Source of the DNA: Candidatus Vogelbacteria bacterium
GTDB lineage: Bacteria > Patescibacteriota > Minisyncoccia > Phycocordibacterales > XYD1-FULL-46-19
Direction: 5' to 3'
Assembly (NCBI GenBank): GCA_021414225.1
Contig: JAIOOX010000002.1
Coordinates: 161,118-225,117 of the forward strand
Length of the DNA stretch: 64,000 nt
Part shown: piece after piece, positions 21,428-58,293 of the stretch
Layout: each line of letters begins with the position of its first letter
Position numbering within the stretch: the first letter of the stretch is position 1
Program-made: the position numbers and the translations under genes
Notes under the pieces: model-generated
What the model was told of the DNA's origin: nothing
The model's database searches: none
Seen by the model: only the letters and a program-made list of their open reading frames with translations

Positions 21428-21832
21428 ATGGCTACCAAGAAAGACAATCAATATTTCGAAGCTGTCGGTCGTCGCAAGACCGCTGTTGCTCGTGTGCGCT
21501 TAACTCCTAGTACTAAAACTTCTTACGTAGTAAACGGCAAACCTTTGGCTGAATATTTCCCAACCAAAGAACTTCAAGCTTCTGTAGAGAGTTCTTTAGC
21601 TACTACTCCCAACATTCACTTTGCTGTTAGTATTAAAACAATCGGTGGGGGCGTTCACGGCCAAGCTGATGCGGCTAAACTTGGTATCGCTCGCGCTATT
21701 ATCTTAACTGACAGCGAACTACGAACCACTCTTAAACAAGCTAAACTTTTGACCCGTGACCCTCGTGCTAAAGAACGACGTAAGTTCGGTCTCAAAAAAG
21801 CCCGCAAGTCTCCACAGTGGAGTAAGCGCTAA
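21428..21832 (+). CDS. rpsI: 30S ribosomal protein S9; the last 6 codons overlap the prophage attachment core
   Basis: GRRKTAVARVRL... C-terminal RKFGLKKARKSPQWSKR. Confidence 0.95.
   Translation: MATKKDNQYFEAVGRRKTAVARVRLTPSTKTSYVVNGKPLAEYFPTKELQASVESSLATTPNIHFAVSIKTIGGGVHGQADAAKLGIARAIILTDSELRTTLKQAKLLTRDPRAKERRKFGLKKARKSPQWSKR
21815..21832 (+). repeat. attL core region: CAGTGGAGTAAGCGCTAA (rpsI codons PQWSKR plus stop)
   Basis: Shares the 11-bp identity TGGAGTAAGCG with 58231-58241. Flanks diverge on both sides. Confidence 0.75.
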
Positions 21833-21866
21833 TCCGGAGATCGTAAGTAAAAGCGCTGGACGCACC

Positions 21867-21887
21867 CCTCAGTGGTCAAAGCGCTAA
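21867..21887 (+). repeat. second, synonymously recoded copy of the rpsI 3' end (CCTCAGTGGTCAAAGCGCTAA = PQWSKR plus stop)
   Basis: Encodes the same amino acids as the rpsI 3' end but with different Ser and Lys codons, 35 bp downstream of the real rpsI stop. Confidence 0.6.
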
Positions 21888-21935
21888 CCCTTCGGTCCAA
21901 AGAAGGCTACCTAGATTAAAGAATGAATACGGAAA

Positions 21936-21966
21936 GACACCCGACACCATCGGGTGTCTTTTCTAT
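21936..21966 (+). terminator. rho-independent terminator (element-supplied) after the reconstituted rpsI
   Basis: GACACCCGA-CACCA-TCGGGTGTC then TTTTCTATTTT. Confidence 0.6.
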
Positions 21967-22227
21967 TTTGTGGTCAGTAAATCGACCACAGATCACTTGG
22001 CTTAGCCAGAGATGATTGCGGTCGGCTTACTGCTGGTCGTGGCAGTACGGTCCAATTATCAGCTAATAAACGTGATCTATGAATACATATACACCCATAA
22101 GGCGGCTCTACGCCTGGGTCGGATTCATTACCTTGGTCTTTCTGGCGACTAAGGCGGTTATCTGGCTCTTTGTAGCGCATCAAGTCCTTGCACTGTACGG
22201 GTATTGAGTTAGCTCATCACACCCACT

Positions 22228-22767
22228 ATGCAAGAAGAAAAAAAGCAAAACTTGATACCCAATAGTACGCAGGTCCCAAACTTGATTCTGGATTTGCTGA
22301 TCCCTCAAATTCCCGAGGGAGAAGCGCGCTGTCTTTTATACATATGCCGCCGGACATTCGGTTTTCATAAGGAAGAAGACAACATCAGTTTTACACAATT
22401 TCAAAACGGCATCAGAACAAGCCAGGGAAGATTGCTCGACTTGGGTACAGGAATGTCTCGACCAGCGGTTAATAACGCACTCCAAAACTTAAAAAAGGCG
22501 GAGGTAATTTTCGTGCAAAAAAGATCGATGGGGAATCGATACCGACTCAATCTTGAAATAGATGTGGATAAAGTAGTAAACGTAATTAACCAGTTAAGAA
22601 AGTTAACTGGAAGTGGTAAACGAAGATTACCAAAAGTAGTTAACGAAGTTAACACACAAAACCTAGTGAAAAAAGAGAAACCTAGTATTAGGGACCCTGT
22701 GAATAAGTTATCCACAGAAATGAGAGAACTCACGAAAAAGATGACCATTAATCGCTTCAATCACTAA
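22228..22767 (+). CDS. phage replisome-organizer-like wHTH protein (DnaD-like N-domain)
   Basis: EARCLLYICRRTFGFHKEEDNISFTQFQNGIRTSQGRLLDLGTGMSRPAVNNALQNLKKAEVI matches the Phage_rep_org_N pattern recalled from memory. Confidence 0.5.
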   Translation: MQEEKKQNLIPNSTQVPNLILDLLIPQIPEGEARCLLYICRRTFGFHKEEDNISFTQFQNGIRTSQGRLLDLGTGMSRPAVNNALQNLKKAEVIFVQKRSMGNRYRLNLEIDVDKVVNVINQLRKLTGSGKRRLPKVVNEVNTQNLVKKEKPSIRDPVNKLSTEMRELTKKMTINRFNH

Positions 22768-22798
22768 CAATAAAAATGAAAATAAATCCAAATACCAA

Positions 22799-24046: not shown

Positions 24047-24050
24047 TGCC

Positions 24051-24431: not shown

Positions 24432-24442
24432 TTAAAATATTT

Positions 24443-24858: not shown

Positions 24859-25488
24859 ATGAGTGAGAAATTGCAAAAAAGAGAACCTTATCGACCACTT
24901 TCGATCCCTGAAAAGGATCTCTTGTTTGCCTTTTACGATAAGCACAATGGGAACATGATTGCGATGTCTCGTGACAGAGAGTCCCAATTTAAGGCCTACA
25001 GCCAAATAAAATACTATTGCGCCTTCTATCATTTTCACGAACGCTACAGCCAAATAAAGCTAGAAAGAGCCACAAAACTAATCGATTCTCTCAAGGATTC
25101 AAAGATTCTAGCCATTCAGCAGGCTATACACCTCATCGAAACACGCCAAATTCCTCTCAAGAATAAGCAAGGAGACCTGATATTGGATGCTGATGGCCAG
25201 CCCATGTTTTACTCCCTTGGTCCCGACCATAAGGAAATAGAGATGGCCTGGAAGATTATCAAGACCGAATTGGGTGAGCCTACAACAATCGGTAAGCACG
25301 ATCACACCTCAAAAGGTGAGCGTATGAGAGGTTTATTCGATTTCAACGAGAAAGAGGCTGAGGATCATGAGTCGATATTTAAACGAGATGATAAACAAAC
25401 AACCGACAACAACATTAAAACCAGTGACAGCGGAGGGGTTAAAGACTCTCAGGATGGCACGGAAGGAGGCGCGTACGAAACACGCTAA
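24859..25488 (+). CDS. possible terminase small subunit (assigned by position only)
   Basis: 209-aa ORF immediately upstream of, and overlapping, terL. No motif recognised. Confidence 0.3.
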   Translation: MSEKLQKREPYRPLSIPEKDLLFAFYDKHNGNMIAMSRDRESQFKAYSQIKYYCAFYHFHERYSQIKLERATKLIDSLKDSKILAIQQAIHLIETRQIPLKNKQGDLILDADGQPMFYSLGPDHKEIEMAWKIIKTELGEPTTIGKHDHTSKGERMRGLFDFNEKEAEDHESIFKRDDKQTTDNNIKTSDSGGVKDSQDGTEGGAYETR

Positions 25489-39708: not shown

Positions 39709-39711
39709 TTT

Positions 39712-42012: not shown

Positions 42013-42033
42013 AGTAATGCACCATTTTTTGCC
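42012..42033 (+). promoter_or_regulatory. conserved motif copy 4, degenerate (AAGTAATGCACCATTTTTTGCC), ahead of the lysis genes
   Basis: Shares AAGTAATGCAC and the T-rich tract. ATGGCA 15 nt downstream. Confidence 0.45.
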
Positions 42034-42057
42034 AAAAAGCGGATTTAAGCTTATGGC

Positions 42058-42339
42058 ATGGATAAAACAGATGGATTCAAGAAATTTCTTTATAACCAAG
42101 TCTCATTGGTGATCGGGATTGTCGGCGTATCTTTTGGAATTTTTAATATGCTCCAAGCTCCCAAGAGCGATATTCAGGTGATTGAGGCTCTCAACAATAT
42201 CAGAGACAACCACATTCATACGATAGAGGAAAACGTAAAGCGTATAGACGAAACTAACACCCAACAATATCAGGATACAAGCGATCGACTGACAAAAATT
42301 GAGACGATTCTTCAGGAACGATTACCATCTAAAAAATAA
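42058..42339 (+). CDS. holin-like small membrane protein
   Basis: One TM (LVIGIVGVSFGIF) plus a charged helical tail, immediately upstream of the amidase. Confidence 0.45.
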   Translation: MDKTDGFKKFLYNQVSLVIGIVGVSFGIFNMLQAPKSDIQVIEALNNIRDNHIHTIEENVKRIDETNTQQYQDTSDRLTKIETILQERLPSKK

Positions 42340-42342
42340 TTT

Positions 42343-42948
42343 ATGAATATTCCATTTCAACAGACTTTAAACTATGCAACTGGTCCTACAAAGAAGATCG
42401 TTGTTGTACTTCATTTCACACTAGGAGCATATAGGGGAGCGGTAGAGTGGCTCTCAAATGCCAACAGACCGAATCGATCATCAGCCCATTTTGTTATCGG
42501 CCGAAATCAGGGAGAGATCGTGCAGCTTGTAAAAGTAACTGATATTGCATGGCACGCAGGAGGCATAAGCAATCCAAATGATCGAGCAAAAAAGATTATG
42601 CTCAAGAATTTGGACGGCTCATATGTGAATCCCAACCAATACACCATTGGTATCGAGCTTGCGGCCGGATATGACGTAGATCAGGACGGATTGGTCGAGC
42701 CGAATGAGAATGATGTCACCGAATGGCAGTATCAACAGCTCACTGAGCTTGTGAAGTCTTTCGTAAATAATCCAGAAACTGCATTTATTCTTGATCCGAA
42801 GAATATCATCATTCATGGAGATATCGCTGACTACAAAGAAAAGCCTGAGATTGTTCGTACCGAACTTCTCAAGCGATTGTTTCCGGTCCAGCCAGTAAAT
42901 AAAGAAGCGATCAAGTCTCAAATTATCAGCTTGCTAAACCAACTATGA
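42343..42948 (+). CDS. N-acetylmuramoyl-L-alanine amidase (PGRP/Amidase_2) endolysin
   Basis: SAHFVIGRNQGEIVQLV and IAWHAGG motifs. Confidence 0.8.
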   Translation: MNIPFQQTLNYATGPTKKIVVVLHFTLGAYRGAVEWLSNANRPNRSSAHFVIGRNQGEIVQLVKVTDIAWHAGGISNPNDRAKKIMLKNLDGSYVNPNQYTIGIELAAGYDVDQDGLVEPNENDVTEWQYQQLTELVKSFVNNPETAFILDPKNIIIHGDIADYKEKPEIVRTELLKRLFPVQPVNKEAIKSQIISLLNQL

Positions 42949-43331: not shown

Positions 43332-44423
43332 GTGATACGTACTGAGTATTACATACCTATGGACGAAATAAAGGCAAAATTTAATAAAAGAATTCAAACA
43401 CCCGAGCCTCATATCGTGGGTCTTTTGGCTGAGATCGATGGTATTCGAGGAGAATTTAAATCGGGTCTTAGAATGACACCACAAGCAATCACTAGTCTCA
43501 AGAGATCGGTGCTTGTTACATCTGCCGGAGCTTCTACTCGTATTGAAGGCTCCAAACTTAATGACAAAGAAGTTGAAGAAGTTTTGCAAGGACTCGCTAA
43601 CTCAAAATTTGCTGAGAGAGATTACCAAGAAGTGCAGGGATATCTTGAAACACTTCAAAATGTTTTCAATAGTTTTGAAAATCTTCCGCTCAGAGAAGGT
43701 GTAATTTCGTCATTGCACAAAGAATTGCTCAAATACTCGAGTAAGGATGATCTTCATCGTGGCAAATACAAGCAAAAGGAGAACATCGTAGGTGTTCAGA
43801 GGGCAGATGGCACGATTGCAAAAATTGTTTTCGATACAACACCAGCTTGGCTTGCTCCAAAAGAGATGAAAGAGCTTGTTGATTGGACTTTTGAGGCATT
43901 GGAAGAAAATCGCTACCATCCGCTTCTAGTAATTGCCAATTTCCTCGTTGATTTTCTCAAAATTCACCCATTTGAAGACGGAAATGGGAGACTTTCACGT
44001 GTCCTCACCAATCTTTTGCTTCTTCGATCAGGCTATCAGTTCGTGCAGTATGTCTCCCATGAGCAGATTGTCGAGAGACGAAAAGACGAATACTATCTTG
44101 CTCTCAAAAAGTCCCAGGATACTTTTGGCAAGGAAAATGACACTATCGCACCTTGGCTTAATTTCTTCTTGGCGGTCATAAAAGAACAGGCAACCAAGGC
44201 TCTTGTTTATCTTCAAGAAGAAAAGTTTGAAGATACCTTGTCACCGAAGCAACTCGAGGTATGGAAGTATCTCTCGGGCAACGGAGAAACTAGCCCAGGT
44301 GATATCGCAAAGGCGGCAGGGATCGAAATAACTACAGTACGCAAAGCATTGGGTCGCCTTGTCGAACTTGAAAAGGTGAAAAGAACTGGCCGAGGCCCAG
44401 GAACTCGCTATGTCAAAATATAA
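43332..44423 (+). CDS. Fic-family protein with C-terminal wHTH
   Basis: HPFEDGNGRLSRVLTNLLLL is the Fic core motif HPFx(D/E)GNGR. Confidence 0.85.
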   Translation: MIRTEYYIPMDEIKAKFNKRIQTPEPHIVGLLAEIDGIRGEFKSGLRMTPQAITSLKRSVLVTSAGASTRIEGSKLNDKEVEEVLQGLANSKFAERDYQEVQGYLETLQNVFNSFENLPLREGVISSLHKELLKYSSKDDLHRGKYKQKENIVGVQRADGTIAKIVFDTTPAWLAPKEMKELVDWTFEALEENRYHPLLVIANFLVDFLKIHPFEDGNGRLSRVLTNLLLLRSGYQFVQYVSHEQIVERRKDEYYLALKKSQDTFGKENDTIAPWLNFFLAVIKEQATKALVYLQEEKFEDTLSPKQLEVWKYLSGNGETSPGDIAKAAGIEITTVRKALGRLVELEKVKRTGRGPGTRYVKI

Positions 44424-45310
44424 TGAAAAAGAAAACCACTAAAAACAAATATAGATTCATCGACTTATTCGCAGGAATAGGAGGCTTTCACATTGCTTTC
44501 AATAAAGCTGGGGGTGAATGTGTATTTGCGAGCGAATGGGATGAGAAGGCTAGGAAAACTTATGAAGCGAATCATAGAAAAACAGACCCAGAGCTTTTTG
44601 AATCTGGAAATTTCGCAGGCGACATAACCAAAGTTGATGCAAAGAAAGTTCCAGATCATGAAATTTTAACGGGAGGATTCCCGTGTCAGCCTTTCAGTCA
44701 TGCGGGTTTCAAGAAAGGATTTACCGACTCTCGAGGGACTCTGTTCCACGATGTTGCAAGAATCATAAAAGAAAAGCAACCGAAAGCTTTCTTTCTTGAG
44801 AATGTCAGTCATCTATTCAAACACGATGATGGTAAAACTTTCGCAACTATCAAGAAAATAATCGAGGAAGACCTCGGGTATTCTTTCTATTATAAAATTG
44901 TCAAAGGCACTGACTTCAATGTGCCACAGTTCAGACCGAGATTGTTCATGGTTGGATTCAAGGACAAAAAAATTAATTTTGAATTCCCGAAGCCCGTAAA
45001 ACTGACAAAAACCATGTCGGATATTTGGGGAGGGAAATGTTCCAGAGAAGTGGGATTTACTTTGCGTGTCGGGGGGAGAGGTTCCAAGATAACAGATCGG
45101 AGAAATTGGGACTCTTATATAGTGGACGGAAAAGTCCGAAGACTTTCTCCTGTTGAAGGACGAAGAATGATGGGACTTCCTGAAAGCTTTATTTTTCCTG
45201 TTACCGACATACAGGCGATGAAGCAGTTGGGGAATGCGGTGGTCGTACCAGCCATTACCGCAGTTGCCAAGCAAATAATAAAAACATTGGACGAACATGA
45301 ACGAGCATAA
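44423..45310 (+). CDS. DNA cytosine-5 methyltransferase (M1)
   Basis: FAGIGGFHIAF, GGFPCQPFSHAG, ENVSHL, QFRPRLFMVGF, LGNAVVVP. Start overlaps the Fic stop. Confidence 0.85.
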   Translation: MKKKTTKNKYRFIDLFAGIGGFHIAFNKAGGECVFASEWDEKARKTYEANHRKTDPELFESGNFAGDITKVDAKKVPDHEILTGGFPCQPFSHAGFKKGFTDSRGTLFHDVARIIKEKQPKAFFLENVSHLFKHDDGKTFATIKKIIEEDLGYSFYYKIVKGTDFNVPQFRPRLFMVGFKDKKINFEFPKPVKLTKTMSDIWGGKCSREVGFTLRVGGRGSKITDRRNWDSYIVDGKVRRLSPVEGRRMMGLPESFIFPVTDIQAMKQLGNAVVVPAITAVAKQIIKTLDEHERA

Positions 45311-46400
45311 AACCATAAAGGGTAATAAGGGCGAATGGAGCGAATTTTACGCATTCATTAAAATACTTGCCGACAGGCAGATTTTTGCAGCGGATGAAAA
45401 TTTGAAGAAACTCAGCGATAAATTTTTTACGGTCCTCAAAATAATCAGAGAGGAAGCGAAGAACGGAAAGATAACTTACGATCTACAATCCGATGGAAAC
45501 GAAATAGCGATCTATAACGAGAAAGGAGATAAAATCGGAACCGCCAAATCCGACAATATCAAAAAAGAGGTAGCCGCCATTTTTTCAAAGATGAAAGAGG
45601 AAGCTAAGACCGCTGCATTTTCAATATCGGTGGCAGACAGTCTCATTGAAGAATTGGGTTGCACTCAAATCAAGGCTTCAAGCGGTAGCAAAGCCGATTT
45701 GATGCTTATGATACACGACAGAATAACCCCGACGACACCCGAGTTGGGATTCAGCATCAAATCAATGTTGGGATCGCCCTCGACTCTCCTTAACGCTTCG
45801 GGAGCAACCAATCTCATTTTCTCAGTTCAGGGATATAAAGGAAATATCGAGGAAGTGAACGCGATTGAAGGGAAGTCGAAGATGAGAGATCGAATGAAGC
45901 ATATCGCCACACACGGAGGAATTGTGAAATTCGAAGGAGTGCACAGTCCGGTATTCAAGAAAAACTTGTCCAAAATCGATACGATTTTCCCCGAGATAAT
46001 TGCGGAAATAATGAAAGCGTACTATTCGGGCAAGGGTTCGACCATGGAAGAATTGGTGACGGGAATTCTCGAAAACGACGAGTTCAAAACCAAGTATAAC
46101 CTCGACAGGGGCGATTACGAATACAAAATAAAGAATTTTTTGGTATCGGTGGCGCTGGGCATGACTCCGAAGAAAGAATGGGACGGATTCACCAAAGCTC
46201 ACGGCGGATACATTGTAGTAAAAGAAGACGGAGAAATCGTTTGCTATCACCTCTACAACAGAGACGAGTTTCAGAACTATCTCTATAAGAACACCAAATT
46301 GGAAACGCCGAGTACCACGCGCCACGGATACGGGTCTATTTATAAAGAGGGCGACAATCTGATGATGAAATTAAATTTGCAAATCAGATTCATCAAATAA
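45297..46400 (+). CDS. putative Type II restriction endonuclease (possibly HpaII-like; N-terminal NKGEWSEFY recalled from that family)
   Basis: Overlaps M1 by 14 nt. The 367-aa size fits a Type II REase. The family call rests on memory of an N-terminal signature. Confidence 0.45.
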   Translation: MNEHKTIKGNKGEWSEFYAFIKILADRQIFAADENLKKLSDKFFTVLKIIREEAKNGKITYDLQSDGNEIAIYNEKGDKIGTAKSDNIKKEVAAIFSKMKEEAKTAAFSISVADSLIEELGCTQIKASSGSKADLMLMIHDRITPTTPELGFSIKSMLGSPSTLLNASGATNLIFSVQGYKGNIEEVNAIEGKSKMRDRMKHIATHGGIVKFEGVHSPVFKKNLSKIDTIFPEIIAEIMKAYYSGKGSTMEELVTGILENDEFKTKYNLDRGDYEYKIKNFLVSVALGMTPKKEWDGFTKAHGGYIVVKEDGEIVCYHLYNRDEFQNYLYKNTKLETPSTTRHGYGSIYKEGDNLMMKLNLQIRFIK

Positions 46401-46445
46401 CGACTCGGCAAACTGTCGCCAACAGCGTAAAAAAAGTTTATAATA

Positions 46446-47525
46446 ATGATACTAATGAGTTCAAATCGTAAAACAATTAAAGTTATAGATTTATTCTGCG
46501 GTATCGGCGGTTTGACTCATGGACTCATCAAGGAGGGGTTGGATGTGGTGGCAGGAATCGACAACGATTCGTCATGCAAATTCGGATACGAATACAACAA
46601 CAAAACCCAGTTTATTGATAAAGACATTCTCAAAGTAACCGCCGAGCAGGTAAACGGTTTGTTCGGTCCCAAAAAGGATTCAATCAGAGTGCTTGCGGGT
46701 TGCGCTCCATGTCAGCCATTTTCAAAATTAAACCTCAAAGAGGTCACACAAAAACAACTTGAACCTCTGGGTAAATTTGCCCAACTTATTGCCGAGACTC
46801 TGCCTGATATCGTATCAATGGAAAACGTAAGCGGGCTCGCAGACGTGAAAAAATATCCCGTATTCGCAAACTTCCTCAAGACTCTTGACGATAACGGCTA
46901 TAAATATAAATACGAGGTTGTCGATGTGTCGGAATTCGGAGTGCCTCAAAAGAGAAAGAGACTCGTACTTCTCGCTTCAAAATTTGGAGAGATATCCTTG
47001 ATAAAAAGAACTCACAAAGACAAACGTGTGACGGTTCGAGATGTTATCAGTCACCTTGAACCAATAAAAGATGGCGATGTTAGCAAAAAAGACCCCCTGC
47101 ATCGAACTCGAAAACTCGCTCCAATAAATCTAAAGCGCATAAAAGCTACGCCTCACAATGGAGGTAATTCTGATAGCTGGTCTGACGATTTGATGCTAGA
47201 GTGCCACAAGAAAGAGTCTGGAAAGACCTACAGTAGCACCGTATATGGCCGAATGCGATGGGATGAGCCTGCACCAACTATGACCACACAGTGTATTGGT
47301 CTCGGAAACGGACGTTTCGGGCATCCGAAGCAAGATAGAGCGATCAGTCTTCGAGAAGCCGCTATTTTTCAAACATTCCCAGAAAATTACAAGTTCGTAC
47401 CTTCAAACGAGCCGATCGTCGTAGCTCGTGTGGCAAAATTCATCGGCAATGCAGTACCAGTAAGACTCGGATCGGTAATCGGCAAGAGTATCAAGAGCCA
47501 CCTCAAATCCTATGAAAAAAACTAA
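46446..47525 (+). CDS. DNA cytosine-5 methyltransferase (M2)
   Basis: FCGIGGLTHG, AGCAPCQPFS, ENVSGL, QKRKRLVLLAS, GNAVPVRLG. Confidence 0.85.
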   Translation: MILMSSNRKTIKVIDLFCGIGGLTHGLIKEGLDVVAGIDNDSSCKFGYEYNNKTQFIDKDILKVTAEQVNGLFGPKKDSIRVLAGCAPCQPFSKLNLKEVTQKQLEPLGKFAQLIAETLPDIVSMENVSGLADVKKYPVFANFLKTLDDNGYKYKYEVVDVSEFGVPQKRKRLVLLASKFGEISLIKRTHKDKRVTVRDVISHLEPIKDGDVSKKDPLHRTRKLAPINLKRIKATPHNGGNSDSWSDDLMLECHKKESGKTYSSTVYGRMRWDEPAPTMTTQCIGLGNGRFGHPKQDRAISLREAAIFQTFPENYKFVPSNEPIVVARVAKFIGNAVPVRLGSVIGKSIKSHLKSYEKN

Positions 47526-49185
47526 TGACCAATTCTCCTTCGAAATATCTCTAAGCGTTCTAAACCACCTCGGAAGAAACCTTTATCGTAGTTTTGCCAC
47601 AGTTTTGGGCGAAGCGATTTCAAATGCCTGGGATGCTGATGCGGAAAATGTCCAAATTTTCATAGACCGAGAAAACAGCAGTTTTTTCATAAAAGACGAC
47701 GGTATAGGAATGTCGAAAGACGATTTTCAAAATAAGTTTTTGAGGATCGGTTACTCAAAAAGGAAGGATGGGGGATCAAAGTCAGCGAAAAAACGTCCTT
47801 ATATAGGCAGAAAAGGTATCGGGAAACTGGCGCTCCTTTCATGCGCAAAGAAAATTACGATCATATCAAAGCAAAAAGGAGGCAAATATGTCGGAGGTAT
47901 CATTGATAACTCGGGTCTTGATAACGCAATCAAGCAAGACCTCACTCCTGACAAATATCCGCTCGGAGAATGGTCCGAGGAAGTTTTTGCAAAACACATT
48001 GAAGGACATGAGCAGGGAACCTTAATATATTTTGAAGGATTGAATGACGGTATAAAAAACAGTTTGGAGTTTTTGAAGAAAATAATCGCTCTGTATTTCA
48101 GATTTTCTCTGCTCGATAATTCTTTTAATATTTTTATAGACGATGAGAAGATTACTCACGAATGTCTTGACGACCTTGCTCAAAAAACAGAGTTTCTTTG
48201 GAGGATCAATGCCCATGATGATCCTTATGTGAAGGGTTTGGAGAATCGATTCACTCCTGAAAATAATGAACAAAGAACTATCAGTGTCGATAAGCCAGAT
48301 ATCAAAGGATTCATCGCTTCCGTCGAGCGCCCTAGAGACCTGAAAATAATGACGACCGAGGAACGTATCGGTATTGATCTTTTCGTGAACGGAAGATTAC
48401 GTGAAAGAGACATATTGAAGCACATCCCGACCTCTCGAGTGGCTGAAAGCTATCTCTACGGACAAATTCATTATAACGATCTTGATGAAGGCGCGGATCG
48501 TTTTACCAGCAGCAGAGAGGGAATAGTTGCCGACGACCCTACTTACAAAGAATTTCTCGATCTTTTCCGAAAGAAAGTGATTGGTCCCGTTATCGATGAC
48601 TGGGATAAGTGGAGAATCGCGCACAGGAAGGATGGTGATTCTGAAAATGACGCTATTCCAAAGAAGGACAGGAAGTCCCGAGAGCTTTACAACGCTGTTT
48701 CGGATGAGTACACCATGCCCACTAATTCTGCCAACAAGAAAAAAGTTGATGGATGGGTTAACGGCTTGGCCGACGACGCTCAGTATAACTTTTCTTCCTA
48801 CGCCGAGTGTTTTTTAGGAGAAAATCTGATCAGGAAATATGTTAAGGATCAAGGCATTGCTCTCACATCGGTCGCCAATGATCAAATAACGGAATGGAAA
48901 ACCAGGGAGGCGGAAAATAAGAGGCAGGGTAATATAAGCATCGACATAATGGAAAATGGTGAAGACCTGAGCTACCTTGGCATGGATACCTTAACCTTTT
49001 TGGTTGATGTGCCACCCGCTCCTGGAAGCGCGAACTCAATGAGACAAGATGCCAAGGAGTATAAACCTTTGAGAAATGCAGTGATGCACACTGCCATTTT
49101 GACAGATGCAGCAAAAGCAAAGTTGTCTTCGGTATATGAAAATATTAAAGGGCGAGTAAAGACTCTGCTTTCAGGAAGTAATTAA
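47512..49185 (+). CDS. GHKL (MORC/HATPase_c_3-like) ATPase, probable restriction/defence partner of M2
   Basis: LGEAISNAWDA (N box), DDGIGM (G1), GRKGIGKLA (G2). 557 aa with an unassigned C-terminal half. Overlaps M2 by 14 nt. Confidence 0.7.
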   Translation: MKKTNDQFSFEISLSVLNHLGRNLYRSFATVLGEAISNAWDADAENVQIFIDRENSSFFIKDDGIGMSKDDFQNKFLRIGYSKRKDGGSKSAKKRPYIGRKGIGKLALLSCAKKITIISKQKGGKYVGGIIDNSGLDNAIKQDLTPDKYPLGEWSEEVFAKHIEGHEQGTLIYFEGLNDGIKNSLEFLKKIIALYFRFSLLDNSFNIFIDDEKITHECLDDLAQKTEFLWRINAHDDPYVKGLENRFTPENNEQRTISVDKPDIKGFIASVERPRDLKIMTTEERIGIDLFVNGRLRERDILKHIPTSRVAESYLYGQIHYNDLDEGADRFTSSREGIVADDPTYKEFLDLFRKKVIGPVIDDWDKWRIAHRKDGDSENDAIPKKDRKSRELYNAVSDEYTMPTNSANKKKVDGWVNGLADDAQYNFSSYAECFLGENLIRKYVKDQGIALTSVANDQITEWKTREAENKRQGNISIDIMENGEDLSYLGMDTLTFLVDVPPAPGSANSMRQDAKEYKPLRNAVMHTAILTDAAKAKLSSVYENIKGRVKTLLSGSN

Positions 49186-49190
49186 AATAT

Positions 49191-49748
49191 ATGAAAGAAG
49201 AACAGCTAGAAATTATAAATGAAAATGATGAGGTAATCGGACTTGAATCACGGAAGGTTATCCATCAAAAAGGGTTGCTTCATAGAGAGATTCACATCTG
49301 GTTTATTACCCCTGATCGAAAGATCATTTTCCAGCATCGTGCAAAAGACAAAGATACTTATCCAGACAAACTAGATGCGACAGTTGGAGGACACGTTGAT
49401 CCTGGTATGACATATGATGATACTGCAATAAAAGAAGGTAGGGAAGAAACTGGAGTCACTCTTGATTTAGCGAAATTGAAGTTGGTGAGAAAGATACACA
49501 AGAAAACTTTTGATGAGGATACAGGGCTCACAAATAATACAATCCGGTCCCAATATGCATATCTCTTTGAGGGAGGTATCAGTGATTTACAGATTGAGAC
49601 AGGTAAGGCAATTGGGTTTGAGGCATGGCCAATTGATTCTCTATCAAAATTAACTGAAGAAGATAGGTCTAAATTTATTCCCGCAATCCTCTCCAAAGAA
49701 TTTCTCGATCTTTTTGAGGAAAGTCAGAGGGTATTAAATTTAAAATAA
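49191..49748 (+). CDS. Nudix hydrolase
   Basis: GLLHREIHIWF..., GGHVDPGMTYDDTAIKEGREETGV (Nudix box REx2EExG). Starts 6 nt after the GHKL gene. Confidence 0.75.
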   Translation: MKEEQLEIINENDEVIGLESRKVIHQKGLLHREIHIWFITPDRKIIFQHRAKDKDTYPDKLDATVGGHVDPGMTYDDTAIKEGREETGVTLDLAKLKLVRKIHKKTFDEDTGLTNNTIRSQYAYLFEGGISDLQIETGKAIGFEAWPIDSLSKLTEEDRSKFIPAILSKEFLDLFEESQRVLNLK

Positions 49749-49751
49749 TTT

Positions 49752-50180
49752 ATGAAAATTTACGTATTAGGAAGTAATAGTTTTGTTGAAGAAATGGTCA
49801 TGTGCAAAGATGAGCTTTGCAGAATTGGTCACGATGGTTGGATTCATCCTGATTACGAAGCACACGTCCGAGGCGAAAAGAGAGCATTTCCTGATACTAC
49901 GGTCCCAGGAGAGAGCGCCGACTTCAAACGGGCAAACAACTACATCAAGACCCATTATAAGCATATTTTGGAAAGTGACGCTGTTCTTATCGTAAACCTT
50001 GAAAAGAAAGGAGTTAAAAACTATATAGGTGGCAATTGTTTGATTGAGATGGGTCAGGCATACGTGACTGATAAGAAAATTTTTTTGCTCATGGATATTC
50101 CGCTCACCTTGCCATATCTTGATGAGATTAAGGCAATGGACCCTGTTTGTCTACAAGGAGATTTAACAAAAATAAAATAA
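49752..50180 (+). CDS. nucleoside 2-deoxyribosyltransferase / DNPH1-like protein (copy 1)
   Basis: KIYVLGSNSF and NYIGGNCLIEMGQAY, compared with the NDT catalytic-Glu motif GLGMELGYA / DNPH1 GVGYELGRA. Confidence 0.6.
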   Translation: MKIYVLGSNSFVEEMVMCKDELCRIGHDGWIHPDYEAHVRGEKRAFPDTTVPGESADFKRANNYIKTHYKHILESDAVLIVNLEKKGVKNYIGGNCLIEMGQAYVTDKKIFLLMDIPLTLPYLDEIKAMDPVCLQGDLTKIK

Positions 50181-50206
50181 CCAATATGATAATTACAATT
50201 TGCGGA

Positions 50207-50593
50207 TCAATGAAATTTAATAATGAGATGATTACACTTCAGAAGGAGTTGGAATCGGCTGGTCATACCGTTTATATGCCAATTGCAATTGAAAATCTTG
50301 ATTATTGGCAGGAAGACGGAGCAAAACGAGTTGAAGCGAAGAAAGGACAAAATCTTGTAGCGACCCACATGGATAAAATCGAAAAATCAGAAGCTATTCT
50401 GGTTGCAAACTATACAAAAGGAGATTCAAAAAATTACATTGGGGCAAATACATTTCTCGAGATGGGTTTTGCTCATTACAGAGGTAAAAAGATTTTTGCA
50501 TTAAATACACTGCCTGATCAGAAATATATCAGTGACGAACTTCTCTCCTTTGATCCAATCATCTTAAACGGGGATATAAGTAATATTTCTTAA
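50207..50593 (+). CDS. nucleoside 2-deoxyribosyltransferase / DNPH1-like protein (copy 2; start at MIITICGS)
   Basis: ITICGSMKF and NYIGANTFLEMGFAH. Paralog of the preceding gene. Confidence 0.6.
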   Translation, partial: SMKFNNEMITLQKELESAGHTVYMPIAIENLDYWQEDGAKRVEAKKGQNLVATHMDKIEKSEAILVANYTKGDSKNYIGANTFLEMGFAHYRGKKIFALNTLPDQKYISDELLSFDPIILNGDISNIS

Positions 50594-50598
50594 TATTT

Positions 50599-51033
50599 AT
50601 GTGGCTTATTTATTCATTAGCAGCTTCGCTTTTTTGGGGATTAACCTATGTTCTAAATGAACGGGTCTACAAACATATCTCTTTTCTCACCTCACTAGTG
50701 ATCACTTCCTTCTTTGCTTTTGTAACTCTGGGATTAGTCTCCTATTTTACTCGAAATCTACAGAAAGACCTTCATACAATTGTTTCTTCCGAGGCTGTAT
50801 TATGGCTTGTGGGTGGTGGGGTAGTCACACTTATTGTTGCAGAAGTTTTCATCGGTCTTTCTATCAGTTCTAAAAACGCAACCTTATCGGGACTTATCGA
50901 AATTTCGTACCCAATTTTCATTGCATTATTTTCCTATCTCCTTTTTAAGGAAAATCAACTAACTTTACCTACAGGTATAGGGGCATCTCTTATTTTTATT
51001 GGTATAGCAGTAATCTACTTTTTTAATAAATAA
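50599..51033 (+). CDS. 4-TM EamA/DMT-like small membrane protein
   Basis: Four hydrophobic helices, SLFWGLTYV start. Confidence 0.5.
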   Translation: MWLIYSLAASLFWGLTYVLNERVYKHISFLTSLVITSFFAFVTLGLVSYFTRNLQKDLHTIVSSEAVLWLVGGGVVTLIVAEVFIGLSISSKNATLSGLIEISYPIFIALFSYLLFKENQLTLPTGIGASLIFIGIAVIYFFNK

Positions 51034-51366
51034 ATGAGTAATTATTTTTTTCTAGCATTTATCATTACGATCATAATCACACGTCTATTTCTTTTTCTTA
51101 ATCCTATCCCTGCACCAACAATAGGGAAGTTCAGAACGCATCATTACATGTTCGGAATTTTGGGAATTATAGTCGGTCTTCTCACACATTGGCTCGTGGT
51201 ATATGCAATAGGATGGGGCCTTTTCATAGATGAACTGACATATCTTCTCATGAGAGGAAAAAATCATCAGGATAATTATTCTAAAGTCTCACTGTTTGGA
51301 ACCCTGATCTTTGTAATTCTTGTTTTTCTTTTAAAAGATTATCTCTTACTTTTATATAGCTTTTAG
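51034..51366 (+). CDS. 3-TM small membrane protein
   Basis: Hydrophobic helices. Start abuts the previous stop. Confidence 0.45.
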   Translation: MSNYFFLAFIITIIITRLFLFLNPIPAPTIGKFRTHHYMFGILGIIVGLLTHWLVVYAIGWGLFIDELTYLLMRGKNHQDNYSKVSLFGTLIFVILVFLLKDYLLLLYSF

Positions 51367-51419
51367 GTAAAAGTATGGTAATTTAAGATTAAAGTTAACT
51401 TAAACAAAAGGAGGATACC

Positions 51420-52064
51420 ATGCAATGGATTAGTGCAATGCGTCCCCCTTGCGGGACGTTAACAGCTCTTTTAGTGATCTCGGGGTTTCTCTACGGCCAC
51501 CAGCCAATTGACTGGAGTGTTGTTGTTGCGGTGTTTTTCATAACCTCAATGGCAATGCTGATCAACGATTACCATGACAGAGAAATTGATGTTGCTAAGG
51601 GGAAACTTTTAGCAAGCAGTCAACCAGTATGGTTTCTGCGCTATGCTGTGGCGTTTGCAGTAATCAGTCTCGGACTCTGTCTTGTTGTTTGGTCACGTAA
51701 TTCACATTTCGGAATGCTGTGCGTGGGCATGTGGATCACATCTATAGCCTACAACAAAGCTCAGCGGAATCCTGTGGCAAAGAATATAATTGTCAGCATA
51801 AACGTCGGGGCAACAATTTTATTTCCTTTGCTCGCAGGCAGTAAGGTTTTCGAATTGTGGATCATGGCAGTCCTTATCGTTCTCATAATAACCGTAAGGG
51901 AGTATATGAAGGACGTGGAGGACATGGAGGTCGATCGTGGCAAGAAACGAACGCTCGCATTGGTCATGAATAGTAGGATCAGGAGGGATTCAGCAATACG
52001 CTGGAAACATCTCATGACTCTGCTCCTAGTGGCGTTAATGGTCGGGTGTGCAATCAATTACTAA
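51420..52064 (+). CDS. UbiA-prenyltransferase-like membrane protein (short)
   Basis: NDYHDREID matches NDxxDxxxD. Multiple TM helices. Strong AAAGGAGG SD. GC-richer than its neighbours. Confidence 0.4.
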   Translation: MQWISAMRPPCGTLTALLVISGFLYGHQPIDWSVVVAVFFITSMAMLINDYHDREIDVAKGKLLASSQPVWFLRYAVAFAVISLGLCLVVWSRNSHFGMLCVGMWITSIAYNKAQRNPVAKNIIVSINVGATILFPLLAGSKVFELWIMAVLIVLIITVREYMKDVEDMEVDRGKKRTLALVMNSRIRRDSAIRWKHLMTLLLVALMVGCAINY

Positions 52065-52065
52065 G

Positions 52066-52115
52066 GACTGGAGAGGAAGCGCTGGTGCGTTTCTGCCAGT
52101 CCTTTCTCTTTCTAC
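52066..52115 (+). terminator. hairpin plus T-rich tract after the UbiA-like gene
   Basis: GGACTGG...CCAGTCC stem (26-nt loop) followed by TTTCTCTTTC. Confidence 0.35.
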
Positions 52116-52202
52116 TTGCTAATACGATAAAATCGTGTTATGTTTTGTCGCAGCACAGTAGTCAGTTAATTTTAACCAACAACACGAAAGGAGGGTGTCC
52201 AT

Positions 52203-53360
52203 ATGGCCCAAAAGCCTGTCATTGCATACATTGAAAGTAGTCATAGCGGAATGAGTGATGATAATCACTACCGTGATGCCCTCAGCTTTTTTCTGAGACA
52301 GCATCTTGGGTGTGAAGTCATCATTTACGATTACGATCGTGATTTTGAGGAAGACCTAGCGCGAGTTCAAAAACTCTCGAAAGGTAGTCAGCTGATCGCG
52401 GTCATCGTGAAGCAGCAAGAATATGATGATCAGCACACGAGAGTGATTCAAAAGGTTCGTTTGGATGTTTCCAAAACTTTACCTGTCGTGGTAATTCCCG
52501 ATTGGCGAGGTGAGGAGAGGTTCAACGGACTTCCAGACGATCTGCTCGTTTACACGCACGACCACAGCAGTCCCGAACTAGTGGAGCTGATCAACAACCT
52601 GATCAGCGTCTGGAAGCCTGGCCTTAATTGGCTCGGCGCACAGACGACAGAGGATCAGGTGATCCTTATGGCTCAACTGGAAAACGCTTATCGAAAGCAC
52701 TACCTTGATGATGAAGACGATGGAATGCTCGGTACTCCCGATCGTAACCATCAAATCGTTGCCGAGGCGCTACGACTCAAACTGCTTCCCTCGATTTGCC
52801 TAAAGGCCGAGTTTGACGACACGATTGAGAGAAAGACTCGAGTGTTTGTCACCGCAGAGCCTTCGGTGTATCAAAAGGAAGTAGAGAAGATCAAGGCGAT
52901 GAGTGATGATGAGCGGAAGGAATTCGATCACTCTTTGGATCGAGCAAGAGGCCACATGCCAGCTGAAGGTGGGGGCGTTTATGTGACTCGCGCATCATGT
53001 GGCGAGAATGTAAACGGCATCGCCATTGATCCAGTGACTCTGGAAACCTATGTGACGCATCGCTTCGGCGAGCATCACATGGCGAAGGATATGCTGGCTC
53101 GTCGCATTGAAGTAATCGAGGAGCTCAAGAAGGGAAGGAACGGGTCCGAGAACCACGACGAAGATGCCGAGTATCGGGTCAAGTGGCGCATAATGGCTGG
53201 ACTGATCTTTTCGGAGATCGACGGCTTCACCACTCCTATCGTGCGTTTGTATAAAGAGCATGGCGTCAACGAGGAGGACTCGAAAAAGGTTGTGGCCTTC
53301 TTATTGCGAGAACAGCGATTCATTCCGGTCGATTTTGACGGAAAGGTGATGGAATGCTAG
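52203..53360 (+). CDS. hypothetical protein (385 aa)
   Basis: Strong GAAAGGAGGG SD. GC-richer codon usage. No family recognised. Confidence 0.45.
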   Translation: MAQKPVIAYIESSHSGMSDDNHYRDALSFFLRQHLGCEVIIYDYDRDFEEDLARVQKLSKGSQLIAVIVKQQEYDDQHTRVIQKVRLDVSKTLPVVVIPDWRGEERFNGLPDDLLVYTHDHSSPELVELINNLISVWKPGLNWLGAQTTEDQVILMAQLENAYRKHYLDDEDDGMLGTPDRNHQIVAEALRLKLLPSICLKAEFDDTIERKTRVFVTAEPSVYQKEVEKIKAMSDDERKEFDHSLDRARGHMPAEGGGVYVTRASCGENVNGIAIDPVTLETYVTHRFGEHHMAKDMLARRIEVIEELKKGRNGSENHDEDAEYRVKWRIMAGLIFSEIDGFTTPIVRLYKEHGVNEEDSKKVVAFLLREQRFIPVDFDGKVMEC

Positions 53361-53612: not shown

Positions 53613-53613
53613 C

Positions 53614-54960: not shown

Positions 54961-54962
54961 AC

Positions 54963-55973: not shown

Positions 55974-56411
55974 CTAGATAAAATCTATTTTTGAAACTTC
56001 GTTTTTAAGATTTTCTATGTCCGCCAGAACCCTGTTGTAGATGCCGAGAGCCTTTTCATACTCCTGTTTATTTATAGAGTCAGGATTACTCAAGGTTTCT
56101 TTGACTGAATTTATGATTTCAAGTTCCTCTGGTGTGACAAAAGTGGCTAAGGAGACGTAAGAATTAGCAAGAACCATGATCTGGTCTTTGATCTTTCTTT
56201 TTACTTCATCTTTCGAATCTGCTAGCGTAGTTGAGTCGTTCAACGAAACTGCAAAAGGTGTGTGTCCGAAAAGGAGAGCTTTGTTCGTATTAAATTTTGG
56301 GGGTTCGTAAATTGGATTCTTCATGGAATGACTATGATACACAAAAAGCCCACCACATGAGTAGAGGCCGAAGCCCCTCATACCAGTTTCCCAGTATGGC
56401 CTGACGGACAC
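55974..56411 (-). CDS. hypothetical protein
   Basis: ORF only. Its start codon lies inside a 12-bp inverted repeat. Confidence 0.35.
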   Translation of the reverse strand: MSVRPYWETGMRGFGLYSCGGLFVYHSHSMKNPIYEPPKFNTNKALLFGHTPFAVSLNDSTTLADSKDEVKRKIKDQIMVLANSYVSLATFVTPEELEIINSVKETLSNPDSINKQEYEKALGIYNRVLADIENLKNEVSKIDFI

Positions 56412-56934
56412 CCCATATGATGGGTTCTTTGTGTCCGTCAGGACTTTTTCGCCATGCCAGTGATATCACTAGTTTAGGCTACTTTATATTCAGTTGTGAG
56501 TGCATTATAACAGAAACTTTTACTCATTTGAAGGCCTTCGATTTTTATGTCATAAAACAAAAAACTAGGCCACATATACTAAAAATGTCTGGTATGCAAG
56601 AAATAAATGGTGCATAAATCTGTGTATTAATTGTGGATGAAAAGGCATGTAAAATTCATTGACGATCAAAACCAGCGGCGCTAGTATTTGCATTAAGAAG
56701 CCACCCAAAAAGCTTCGAATTAATTAATAGTCTAATGAGCCTTGGTGTTCCTACGGGAACCTGCCCCTCGAAAGGGCATATATTAACCCAAGTGTTGACG
56801 ATTTTCAGATTTTATAACCACATCATCCAAGGCCTAGCATTGCCTTCGAGGTTGTTATAGTATCTGTTTCAAGCTTTCTCCTTTGAGCAATCGGAGGTTG
56901 CCCAGCTAGTAATAGGTGGGTGGAAAAAGCGTCG

Positions 56935-56967
56935 CACAAGCCCAGGGTTAATATACTGGGCTTTGTG
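56935..56967 (+). promoter_or_regulatory. palindromic element immediately upstream of int
   Basis: CACAAGCCCAG-GGTTAATATA-CTGGGCTTTGTG, 18 nt before the ATG at 56985. The 11-mer TATATTAACCC recurs inverted at 56779-56789. Confidence 0.4.
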
Positions 56968-56984
56968 TTATCTAAACAAATTGT

Positions 56985-58067
56985 ATGTTTACACGATTTG
57001 AGGATAAGTACGAGGATTACCTCTTACACCTCGAGAAGGAAGGGAGAAAGGCGAAAACTATAGCGGAACACAGGAAGTTTCTCTACGAGTATTTCCCAGA
57101 GAGCTTGCGAAGGAAGTGGTTGTCGAATGTAAGCCGTGCGGACATAGACATTCTGAAGGAAGTCGGCCGAACGCATGGCGAACATGGAGCCACAAGGATG
57201 GTTGTCACATTACGAAGATACTTTGACTTTATGCAGTCCCATCTCGGTATGAAAATGCCGTTTGATTGGAGAGATATAAGGGTCCCCGTAGTAAGACAGA
57301 AAGAACAGCCGGTATTCGAAGATCATGAATTAGCGACATTGTTCCATGTCATGGAAACTATGGAAGCGGGAAGTGTCCACGGCCGAAGAATGGCATGGAC
57401 GATGCAGGCATTCTTCGAGACACTATTCGGCACCGGTCTGCGTATTCACGAAGCCTTGAGATTAAATAGAATTGATCTCAACAGCATTAAAGAAAGCGGA
57501 AGATTGATGGTTCTTAGAAAAGGAGGGAAGACTTGCGAAGTTTCGTTCTCAGAGCGAGCGATCAAAAAGCTTGAAGAATATTATGGAAGACGTAATGACA
57601 CAAATGATGCCATGTTCGTAAATTCTTGTGGTGAACGTCTCATAATGGCGACAGCAAGAAGCTACTTTGAAAGACTCAAGAGAAAGTTGCGAGATACTGG
57701 TTATCCAGACATTGCAGCAAAACTCAAAAGTCACACGTTCAGAAGAACACTCGCAACATATCTTATAGAGAATGGCGCCGATATAAAGTCGGTCCAAACT
57801 ATAATGGATCACGAATCGGAGAGAACAACAGTGAAGCATTACATCAGGGTAAACAAGAAACGAGCCCAATTAATTCATCACTATATTTTGTCTCGATTCT
57901 CCGTTGATGAACTTGCCAGCCGATGCCGAGAAACCGGAGGCAGAGTACAAGTACGAATGACAGAGAATCAGGGACGCTGGATGACTCTCCGTAATGATGA
58001 AATCTCACCCGATTTATTAGCCCACGTGAAGGAGCAGGAGGCTTCTCTAAGACCCGCACACGTCTAG
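56985..58067 (+). CDS. int: tyrosine recombinase / phage integrase
   Basis: C-terminal HTFRRTLATYLIENGADIKSVQTIMDHESERTTVKHY gives the R...HxxR...Y catalytic signature. Confidence 0.85.
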   Translation: MFTRFEDKYEDYLLHLEKEGRKAKTIAEHRKFLYEYFPESLRRKWLSNVSRADIDILKEVGRTHGEHGATRMVVTLRRYFDFMQSHLGMKMPFDWRDIRVPVVRQKEQPVFEDHELATLFHVMETMEAGSVHGRRMAWTMQAFFETLFGTGLRIHEALRLNRIDLNSIKESGRLMVLRKGGKTCEVSFSERAIKKLEEYYGRRNDTNDAMFVNSCGERLIMATARSYFERLKRKLRDTGYPDIAAKLKSHTFRRTLATYLIENGADIKSVQTIMDHESERTTVKHYIRVNKKRAQLIHHYILSRFSVDELASRCRETGGRVQVRMTENQGRWMTLRNDEISPDLLAHVKEQEASLRPAHV

Positions 58068-58224
58068 CGCATAATTGACGTACTGGCCACTGATCAAGTA
58101 TACTTTTATTGTTACAAAGTTTTTTCACAAGTAAGTATACGGATTCACAAAATAGAACTCGGGTGAGTCCGTATTCATTTCAATAATCTAAATTCCGATC
58201 GTACGGAAAAGAGCGCGCCAGACA

Positions 58225-58245
58225 CCTCAATGGAGTAAGCGTTAG
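58225..58245 (+). repeat. attR core region: CCTCAATGGAGTAAGCGTTAG (PQWSKR plus stop; displaced original rpsI tail)
   Basis: Third PQWSKR-stop copy. The 11-bp core is identical to attL. Confidence 0.75.
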
Positions 58246-58253
58246 ACATCAAA

Positions 58254-58293
58254 AGCAACAAAAAACCTCCCCATTCGGGAGGTTTTTTGTTGC
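58254..58293 (+). terminator. perfect extended palindrome terminator (probably the original rpsI terminator)
   Basis: GCAACAAAAAACCTCCC-CATTC-GGGAGGTTTTTTGTTGC. Confidence 0.7.

Follow-up and report, generated by a model that had tools for sequence, protein, structure and literature searches.

Sequences that integrate into the end of a protein gene face the question of how one attachment site can serve hosts in which the same amino acids are written with different codons. This question is raised by a 64,000-nt stretch of a Candidatus Vogelbacteria contig (JAIOOX010000002.1, positions 161,118 to 225,117; hereafter the window), in which the last codons of rpsI, the gene of ribosomal protein S9, occur three times and a large phage-like insert separates the gene from its former downstream neighbors. 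Our reading is that an SU10-like phage has integrated into rpsI by means of a phage attachment site (attP) that carries two tandem mimics of the rpsI tail, either of which would be usable as the crossover core. From the sequence comparisons below, we put the probability of this reading as a whole at about 0.8.

An insert with exact borders in the last codons of rpsI

Pattern search confirmed three copies of a tail encoding PQWSKR-stop at the places given by the original prediction: CCACAGTGGAGTAAGCGCTAA at 21812-21832, which is the end of rpsI (tail 1), CCTCAGTGGTCAAAGCGCTAA at 21867-21887 (tail 2), and CCTCAATGGAGTAAGCGTTAG at 58225-58245, with the predicted 11-bp core (TGGAGTAAGCG) common to the first and the third. 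The degenerate PQWSKR-stop pattern CCNCARTGGWSNAARCGNTAR has these three matches on both strands of the 64 kb and none in 100 dinucleotide-preserving shuffles. The likeness at the protein level runs upstream of the tails, with copies 2 and 3 reading PEIVSKSAGRTPQWSKR and IPIVRKRARQTPQWSKR and the true S9 end reading GLKKARKSPQWSKR, each followed by a stop. Further structural claims of that prediction also held. The tyrosine integrase gene, said to end about 160 bp before the third copy, ends 157 nt before it. The third copy is followed by a perfect-palindrome terminator (58255-58293), and the first by a different terminator with a 14-bp stem, located past both copies 1 and 2 (21931-21963). The host genes grpE-dnaK-dnaJ resume to the right of the insert. 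The expected GC enrichment is present and modest, with 0.429 in the insert vs 0.389 and 0.414 in the left and right host flanks, respectively. The host had been described as resembling the Candidate Phyla Radiation (CPR), and this assignment holds because NCBI labels its proteins "MAG: Candidatus Vogelbacteria bacterium" (MAG, metagenome-assembled genome).

The proposal of an att-type integration into the 3' end of rpsI, with a replacement tail brought by the element, was borne out by related contigs. An exact-sequence look-up found seven contigs encoding the identical 134-aa S9, with both occupied and empty loci among them. The uninterrupted rpsI-grpE region that was to be looked for in relatives is present in four contigs (L001, L003, L005, and L006), where rpsL13-rpsI is followed directly by the terminator, the DUF7282 gene, grpE, and dnaK; the occupied form is represented by L002, which does not differ from the window. 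In the left flank, nucleotide identity between the empty contigs and the window is 97.7–99.1%, and in the right flank 92–97.6%; the alignments break at window positions 21828 and 58207 with a 35-bp overlap. The attB of the empty sites reads TCTCCACAATGGAGTAAGCGTTAGACATC and is followed by the palindromic terminator, while attL and attR of the window read TCTCCACAGTGGAGTAAGCGCTAATCCGG and CACCTCAATGGAGTAAGCGTTAGACATC, respectively. Because conspecific contigs with identical S9 run uninterrupted, the 36,413-bp insert (58231 minus 21818) is real and its borders are exact. The S9 product is the same before and after integration, with the 134-aa protein encoded at both occupied and empty loci.

The base preceding the TGG codon narrows down the point of exchange. 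CAA is found in all six phage-free contigs of the host lineage (L001, L003, L004, L005, L006, and L007) and CAG in the integrase-proximal arm of all close cassettes; the window has CAG in attL and CAA in attR. Barring later mutation, the strands would have switched at CA (21815-21816 and 58228-58229), between an A/T difference (CCA vs CCT) and this A/G difference. The 11-bp identity was considered as the necessary exchange point and rejected, since the CAA/CAG pattern puts the switch 5' of the 11 bp. All other junctions fit an exchange in CTCAGTGG, and the junction of L013 places it to the left of the sixth base counted from the start of TGG. With the usual 6–8-bp overlap, the serine codon would be located in the overlap or immediately beside it. 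The A/G difference lies within or beside the exchanged segment, which implies that a single heterology is tolerated and that perfect identity is not strictly required.

The same spot varies in another way. In L004 (4800-5340; JGI Ga0268731_1005190), the left flank of which is 99.3% identical to the window, rpsI stops with TAA instead of TAG. Between it and the DUF7282 gene lie a terminator of variant sequence and an insert of ~0.5 kb that codes for a 118-aa protein.

Two tails in one attP, both found as junctions

The middle copy (tail 2), for which the original prediction offered no explanation, is read here as a second, alternative core of the phage attP. This attP is ordered as P arm, tail 1 (...CTCAG TGG AGT AAG CGC TAA), a 34-nt spacer, tail 2 (...CTCAG TGG TCA AAG CGC TAA), and P' arm. 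Both tails encode PQWSKR-stop, with the serine written AGT in tail 1 and TCA in tail 2. Junctions in other contigs were anchored on TGGAGYAAGCG and sorted into three classes; one metagenome DNA scan and one genome-contig scan gave two loci each.

The first class comprises unrecombined double attPs beside the integrase (Int) gene, found in L023-L026 (Int 87% identical to that of the window) and in L027 (Int 62%). Every double attP, across three cassette lineages, has AGT in tail 1, TCA in tail 2, and a TGG-to-TGG distance of exactly 55 nt, and this spacing is kept while the spacer sequence has diverged nearly fully between the lineages. The two tail units of L027, GAAAAGAGTTATCaCACCATTTCAGTGGagtAAGCGTTAg and GAAAAGAGTTATCgCACCATTTCAGTGGtcaAAGCGTTAa, differ only in their serine and stop codons and in one further base. 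Among closer relatives, the spacer (21833-21866) is identical in the integrase-adjacent copies of L010, L013, L020, and L022.

In the second class, site-1 junctions, host DNA begins at tail 1. It includes attL and attR of the window, the attL of L021, and the attRs of L009 and L012. The S9 of the L021 host is 59.7% identical to that of the window host, and the L009 attR adjoins PemK-grpE-dnaK of yet another host. Tail 1 thus served in the window host and in two or three others.

In the third class, the crossover is at tail 2. The attRs of L010, L013/L014/L020, and L022 run from the integrase gene through the P arm, an intact tail 1, and the spacer to CTCAGTGGTC, followed by a host tail and terminator. 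The matching attL, in which the rpsI body is joined straight to tail 2 and the P' arm without tail 1, was predicted beforehand and then found twice, in L028 and L029. The L028 attL contains aagagtcctCAGTGGTCAAAGCGCTAAcccttcggtccaaagaagg and continues into the genes of ORF68 (ORF, open reading frame), a replication protein O-like protein (RepO), and a methyltransferase. The L029 attL and the L022 attR are located on one contig of a Candidatus Paceibacterota MAG (JAGOVB010000001.1), with their cores 36.8 kb apart. In both L028 and L029, the stretch homologous to the window starts with the very first base of tail 2 (21867). The site-2 phages and the window phage share 95–98% identity in RepO, 96–100% in ORF68, and 86–89% at the nucleotide level over 6–12 kb, while S9 and RpoA of the site-2 hosts are only 59–62% identical to those of the window host. 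By these comparisons, it is the same phage in different hosts, integrated via tail 1 or tail 2.

The arms on either side of the tails are also conserved. The P' arm is conserved in L021, L028, and L029, and in L023/L024 with co-varying changes. The motifs of the P arm (58146-58179) match those of the P' arm (21922-21972) as imperfect inverted repeats, and in the L024 lineage the two sets change together; each arm reads as a terminator facing into the prophage. The arms may insulate the phage from host read-through, serve as arm-type Int sites, or both.

A proposed core for each serine codon family

In three hosts, the tail used agrees with the serine codon of the host. The window host has AGT and tail 1 was used; the L029/L022 host has TCA (its attR keeps the host sequence AAACGATAA) and tail 2 was used; the L013 host has TCT, kept in attR, and again tail 2 was used. 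PQWSKR is kept at the S9 C-terminus among these hosts, while the whole protein is only ~59% identical. The C-terminus of S9 contacts the P-site tRNA. Synonymous sites are free to vary, and the serine families AGY and TCN are not interconvertible by single synonymous steps. In the model that we propose, the phage carries one pre-written core per serine codon family, and the tyrosine integrase would recombine attP with the last rpsI codons at whichever core matches the host gene, catalyzing exchange at both. With the serine codon in or beside the overlap region, a mismatch there would be expected to block exchange. In the window, accordingly, attL runs from the rpsI body through a hybrid tail 1 and the spacer to tail 2, which is intact, and on to the P' arm with its terminator of phage origin, and attR consists of the P arm and a hybrid tail 1, followed by the tail and terminator that the host had originally. 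Where the host serine is TCN, rpsI is joined directly to tail 2, and tail 1 and the spacer remain beside the integrase gene. The three bases at which the cores differ would also prevent deletion of the spacer by the integrase, and the excised attP junction of the window phage would read GACACCTCAGTGGAGTAAGCGCTAATCCGGAG.

We consider it quite likely that one attP holds two functional tandem cores 55 bp apart (AGT and TCA), by which a single cassette lysogenizes hosts of either codon family, and that this cassette moves as a unit among phages and other elements with different cargo; the two statements are judged jointly.

A portable integration cassette

The cassette comprises ORF116, a LOOT RNA, the integrase gene, and the att region, 2.27 kb in all. 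Window positions 55975-58245 match L009, L010, L013, L014, L020, and L022 at ~90–92% nucleotide identity (blastn), whereas the genes adjoining on the left are unrelated. The integrase has the expected catalytic residues, read from the translation without a formal alignment: the box I Arg in GLRIHEALRL, the box II His-x-x-Arg in KSHTFRRTLATYL, and the Tyr in TTVKHYIRV. It shares at most 28% identity with GenBank phage records, with best matches from Listeria and Enterococcus.

LOOT RNA lies just upstream of ORF116, divergent from the integrase gene, with a promoter-like site at 56532-56504 on the minus strand. It is full-length in every close cassette at 78–82 bits (L009 2213-2330, L010 9378-9495, L020 9288-9405, and L022 9375-9492) and was not detected at the gathering score in the lineage with 87% Int identity (L023). 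It looks as if this orphan RNA family is consistently tied to an integration module with which CPR elements move.

Cargo genes turn over beside the cassette, which makes this position a hotspot. In L013 (1-8981), the ~10 kb next to it hold copper and heavy-metal genes (P-type ATPase, HMA, cupredoxin, and a CsoR-like protein), and copper resistance is also found in L020. In L010 (1-8600), the neighbors are defense-like genes (helicase/ResIII/restriction endonuclease, SIR2, DUF87, PD-(D/E)xK, and an FtsK-like protein). Phages with ~80% nucleotide-identical structural genes and portals more than 90% identical are integrated at other sites, after the gap (GAPDH) gene in L015/L016 and after ychF in L018. 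Because related structural modules sit at the gap and ychF sites, phage body and integration module appear to be exchangeable.

Several further features were seen around these loci. The left ends of L015, L016, and L018 adjoin 3' ends of other conserved genes, and L018 has a serine recombinase upstream. The Paceibacterota prophage has a tRNA gene (L022 8735-8806, plus strand) ~180 nt to the left of its cassette, while the window phage has none. The ~900 nt to the right of the site-2 junction (L013 11320-12285; L020 11230-12194) are GC-rich with no convincing ORF, and for the L020 segment no Rfam match was obtained even at E<=0.01.

Weighing the two-core reading

Five observations weigh against the reading of an rpsI phage with two usable cores. 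First, one TCA-type tail is all that the relative L030 (Int 62% identical) has, which shows that two cores are not obligatory; L030 also suggests that the AGT core arose by duplication. Second, the loci with an intact attP in L027 and L030 are on contigs with Bacteroidota-type genes, which may be misbinned contigs, forms integrated elsewhere, or signs of a different host range. Third, no circular junction of the window phage was found, as scans of viral contigs with the inter-tail segment, with tail 2 plus the P' arm, and with the integrase protein were all empty; intact attPs come only from related cassettes (L023-L027 and L030). Fourth, the large serine recombinase is a second recombinase inside the insert, and might reflect either plasmid-like maintenance or an integration system of older date. 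Finally, the tolerated A/G heterology described above makes it harder to argue that two cores are required by mismatch alone.

The L027 and L030 loci have additional features. The intact mimic of the S9 tail lies between the integrase and RepO genes, double in L027 (12250-12420) and single in L030 (11330-11400). Also encoded on these contigs are outer-membrane beta-barrel, RHS, and Wadjet (JetABCD) proteins and proteins with a type IX secretion system sorting domain. The L027 contig carries the NCBI label Bacteroidales, and P0067, a homologue with 63% identity, carries the label Bacteroidia.

Of the other explanations, the one that survives best is that the insert is a cryptic, immobile prophage remnant with repeats that are mere relics of its history. 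The same sample (SRR15633504) yielded only integrated contigs (L002 and L008) and no excised or circular form, and no excisionase was recognizable among the annotated insert proteins. However, the integrase and all large structural ORFs are intact, and the insert is absent from contigs whose flanks are ~92–99% identical. Moreover, distant hosts hold copies with 86–89% identity, and the protein clusters formed at >=90% identity span many metagenomes, with 23 members for the integrase, 80 for the portal, and 157 for the capsid candidate. Because these clusters span many metagenomes, the phage group is widespread. These sequence data point to recent mobility of the element, and we regard the remnant explanation as rather unlikely.

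A neutral scar at tail 2, left by an old integration, an imprecise excision, or the fusion of a tandem array and carried along passively in the phage arm, would leave only one functional core. Integrative elements commonly accrete in tandem at hotspot genes, each tail unit resembles a duplicated, decayed copy of ~13 rpsI codons, and the single-tail relative L030 would fit such a history. Nevertheless, both tails occur as true junctions with different host DNA, tail 2 in at least four contexts, and the layout, the AGT/TCA assignment, and the 55-nt spacing persist at Int identities of 87% and 62% while the spacer diverges. Moreover, the near-identity of the L027 units outside the serine and stop codons is unlike neutral decay. 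A scar is therefore improbable.

It is similarly doubtful that the insert is a composite, in which the tyrosine-integrase cassette belongs to a separate island that targets rpsI, and a phage that uses the serine recombinase lies within or next to this island. This arrangement is suggested by the large serine recombinase and ParB genes just to the left of the cassette, by the very different genes that the cassette adjoins in L013/L020 and L010, and by the related structural genes at the gap and ychF sites. Only ~10 kb beside the integrase gene is visible in L010 and L013, however, so these loci, too, could be phages that differ in cargo. In four independent contexts, the P' arm runs on without a break into ORF68-RepO-methyltransferase. 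The composite is unlikely because the cassette halves again bracket the same phage in JAGOVB010000001.1, in another host, and because no further tail or att-like sequence is found within 21.9-58.2 kb.

Finally, duplication of a host regulatory sequence was rejected as the origin of the repeats, since empty sites hold one copy and copy 2 travels with the phage.

Gene content of the insert

The terminase, portal, and amidase genes named in the original prediction were recovered by profile matches (Table 1), whereas its holin is only plausible, being a 93-aa protein with one hydrophobic helix encoded upstream of the amidase. The phage nature of the insert is established because a terminase, a portal, an adaptor, and lysins are present. 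On its gene content, the insert is probably a temperate, SU10-like podovirus-type phage of CPR bacteria of the class Paceibacteria. Four large structural proteins without assignment are encoded after the SU10-type adaptor. The 400-, 633-, 693-, and 766-aa proteins gave no Pfam, PHROG, or PDB sequence match; no meaningful hit came from PDB sequence searches with the 633-aa protein, the portal, or the capsid candidate, and major capsid and tail proteins were not recognized by sequence among the insert ORFs.

The cargo of this CPR phage is a complete type II restriction-modification system plus extra genes. Beside the lysis genes (43332-49185) are encoded a Fic/DOC protein with a winged-helix domain, a C5 methyltransferase, an HpaII-type endonuclease, a second C5 methyltransferase, and a 557-aa HATPase_c_3 protein. 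Apart from the endonuclease, Pfam matches in the cargo are PF02661, PF13589, PF00145, PF00293, PF00892, and PF01040. A 71-aa ORF accompanies the serine recombinase and ParB pair on the minus strand (53397-55874), directly to the left of the integration cassette.

Outside the insert, window positions 1-2200 have a GC content of 0.53 vs 0.39 in the neighboring host DNA, and these positions could belong to a further foreign segment. On the minus strand, an ORF of at least 474 aa (2-1423) runs off the window start and has no Pfam match.

Table 1 Features of the rpsI locus and of the insert, in window coordinates
Feature	Position	Strand	Evidence or remark
rpsI (S9, 134 aa)	21428..21832	+	PF00380; bases from ~21817 onward now phage-supplied
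attL core, tail 1 (Ser AGT)	21812..21832	+	CCACAG, TGGAGTAAGCG, CTAA; host-type through CCACA, phage-type from G, compared with attB CCACAATGGAGTAAGCGTTAG (L001/L003/L005/L006)
Spacer between tails 1 and 2, phage DNA	21833..21866	+	degenerate copy of P-arm sequence upstream of tail 1
Tail 2 (Ser TCA), second core left unused in the window	21867..21887	+	CCTCAGTGGTCAAAGCGCTAA; followed by host-specific sequence in L010, L013/L014/L020, L022
P' arm	21888..21973	+	phage-supplied terminator of the rpsI operon, 21931-21963; motifs AATGAATACGGA (21922-21933) and TTCTATTTTGTG (21961-21972)
ORF68, small conserved ORF at phage left end	21974..22180	-	96–100% identical in L021, L028, L029; no Pfam match
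Replication protein O-like	22228-22767	+	PF04492, E=6.2e-9
C5 DNA methyltransferase	22799-24046	+	PF00145
Large terminase	25367-27067	+	phrog_38, E=3.5e-41
SU10-type portal	27122-29131	+	PF23899, E=4.7e-12, 45.6 bits vs curated cutoff 30
Candidate major capsid protein, 400 aa	31379-32581	+	by position only; no family match
SU10-type head-tail adaptor	32668-33297	+	PF24175, E=1.1e-6, 29.6 bits vs cutoff 27
LysM/transglycosylase-type virion lysin	38119-39708	+	LysM match
Structural protein, 766 aa	within 38119..42948	+	between virion lysin and holin candidate
Holin candidate, 93 aa	42058-42339	+	one hydrophobic helix; just upstream of amidase
Amidase_2 endolysin	42343-42948	+	PF01510
Cargo block	43332..53360	+	Fic/DOC, C5 methyltransferase, HpaII, second C5 methyltransferase, HATPase_c_3, NUDIX, EamA, UbiA, ORFs without assignment
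HpaII restriction endonuclease	45297-46400	+	PF09561, E=4.6e-113
Large serine recombinase, 448 aa	53614-54960	-	PF00239 and PF07508
ParB-like protein	54963-55874	-	PF02195
Portable integration cassette	55975..58245		ORF116, LOOT RNA, tyrosine integrase, P arm, attR; 2.27 kb
ORF116	55974-56324	-	no family match
LOOT RNA	56363-56480	-	Rfam RF03000, 81 bits vs gathering 46.4, model 1-121 of 121
Tyrosine integrase	56985-58067	+	PF00589, E=3.2e-27, 95.8 bits vs cutoff 27.1, residues 113-292
P arm	58068-58224		between integrase and attR core; ~160 nt
P-arm inverted-repeat motifs	58146..58179		CACAAAATAGAA and TCCGTATTCATT around a small hairpin; on the minus strand an inward-facing terminator
attR core, tail 1 type	58225..58245	+	CCTCA, then ATGGAGTAAGCGTTAG; phage-type through CCTCA, host-type from A; displaced original rpsI end
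Original host rpsI terminator	58255..58293	+	perfect palindrome with 17+17-nt arms, then T-run; directly after rpsI at empty sites

Relation to known systems

Replacement of the 3' end of a protein gene by a copy that a phage brings along is known classically from e14 and phage 21, which integrate into E. coli icd. As in icd, the element described here carries diverged last codons, the gene ends in phage DNA, and the displaced end is found at the other junction. Those elements carry one replacement end, however, whereas two are present here in tandem, both serving as crossover sites in nature. Lambda-type heterobivalent tyrosine integrases use arm sites. The present system resembles them in having the integrase gene beside attP and long conserved arms (P ~160 nt and P' at least 200 nt) with inverted motifs, and differs in having two cores in one attP; the arm sites here are putative. 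Likeness to SU10-like (Kuravirus-type) podophages lies in a portal and an adaptor above their cutoffs and in the typical order of terminase, portal, capsid candidate, and adaptor. Unlike them, the window phage is predicted to be temperate, has a CPR host, a large terminase at most 26% identical to that of any GenBank phage, and a capsid protein not recognizable by sequence.

Both integration into rpsI and prophages in CPR bacteria are already known. The original prediction was right that the target is a ribosomal-protein gene, but this point of its framing is weakened, since rpsI is a documented hotspot in streptococci (PMC4701971, PMC7487436). According to passages of three papers, streptococcal ICEs (integrative and conjugative elements) and IMEs (integrative mobilizable elements), e.g., IMESag-rpsI and ICE_..._rpsI, integrate into the rpsI 3' end by tyrosine integrases, and in group B Streptococcus this hotspot is also used by the prophage integrase type GBSInt5 and by phage-inducible chromosomal island (PICI)-like elements (PMC4701971, PMC5090054, PMC7487436). 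As described there, these elements share with the window phage the S9-gene 3' end as a target, a site-specific tyrosine integrase, and a gene left functional. They differ in host, which is CPR/Patescibacteria here and Firmicutes there, and the passages on streptococcal rpsI elements in these papers mention no tandem double core (PMC4701971, PMC7487436, PMC5090054).

The view that integrated CPR prophages are rarely documented is also weakened, as they have been reported several times. The parts of the literature consulted describe prophages in Roizmanbacteria (~27 kb) and Paceibacteria UBA5272 (~44 kb) and, as cited within the same papers, in Saccharibacteria, Absconditabacteria, and Gracilibacteria (PMC6509639, PMC12455944). 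Like the window phage, these are described there as integrated, Caudoviricetes-like, and found in CPR MAGs, some with C5 DNA methylase as cargo (PMC6509639, PMC12455944). A phage integrase is listed in PMC6509639, and the portion of PMC12455944 that was searched mentions neither an integrase nor rpsI. For the system described here, the attB, attL, attR, and attP structures are all resolved. For a tandem two-core attP with codon-family cores that are both used, a narrow literature search found no published precedent.

The locus provides one of few fully resolved attB/attP/attL/attR systems for a CPR phage. Genetic tools for this group are nearly lacking, and the compact cassette, used in hosts with core proteins that share only ~60% identity, is a candidate for one. 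As to how site-specific elements cope with synonymous drift in protein-gene targets, a general answer is suggested by the double core, in which several pre-written gene ends are carried together. If this is true, tandem "pseudo-tails" beside integrases elsewhere would be host-range determinants, not scars.

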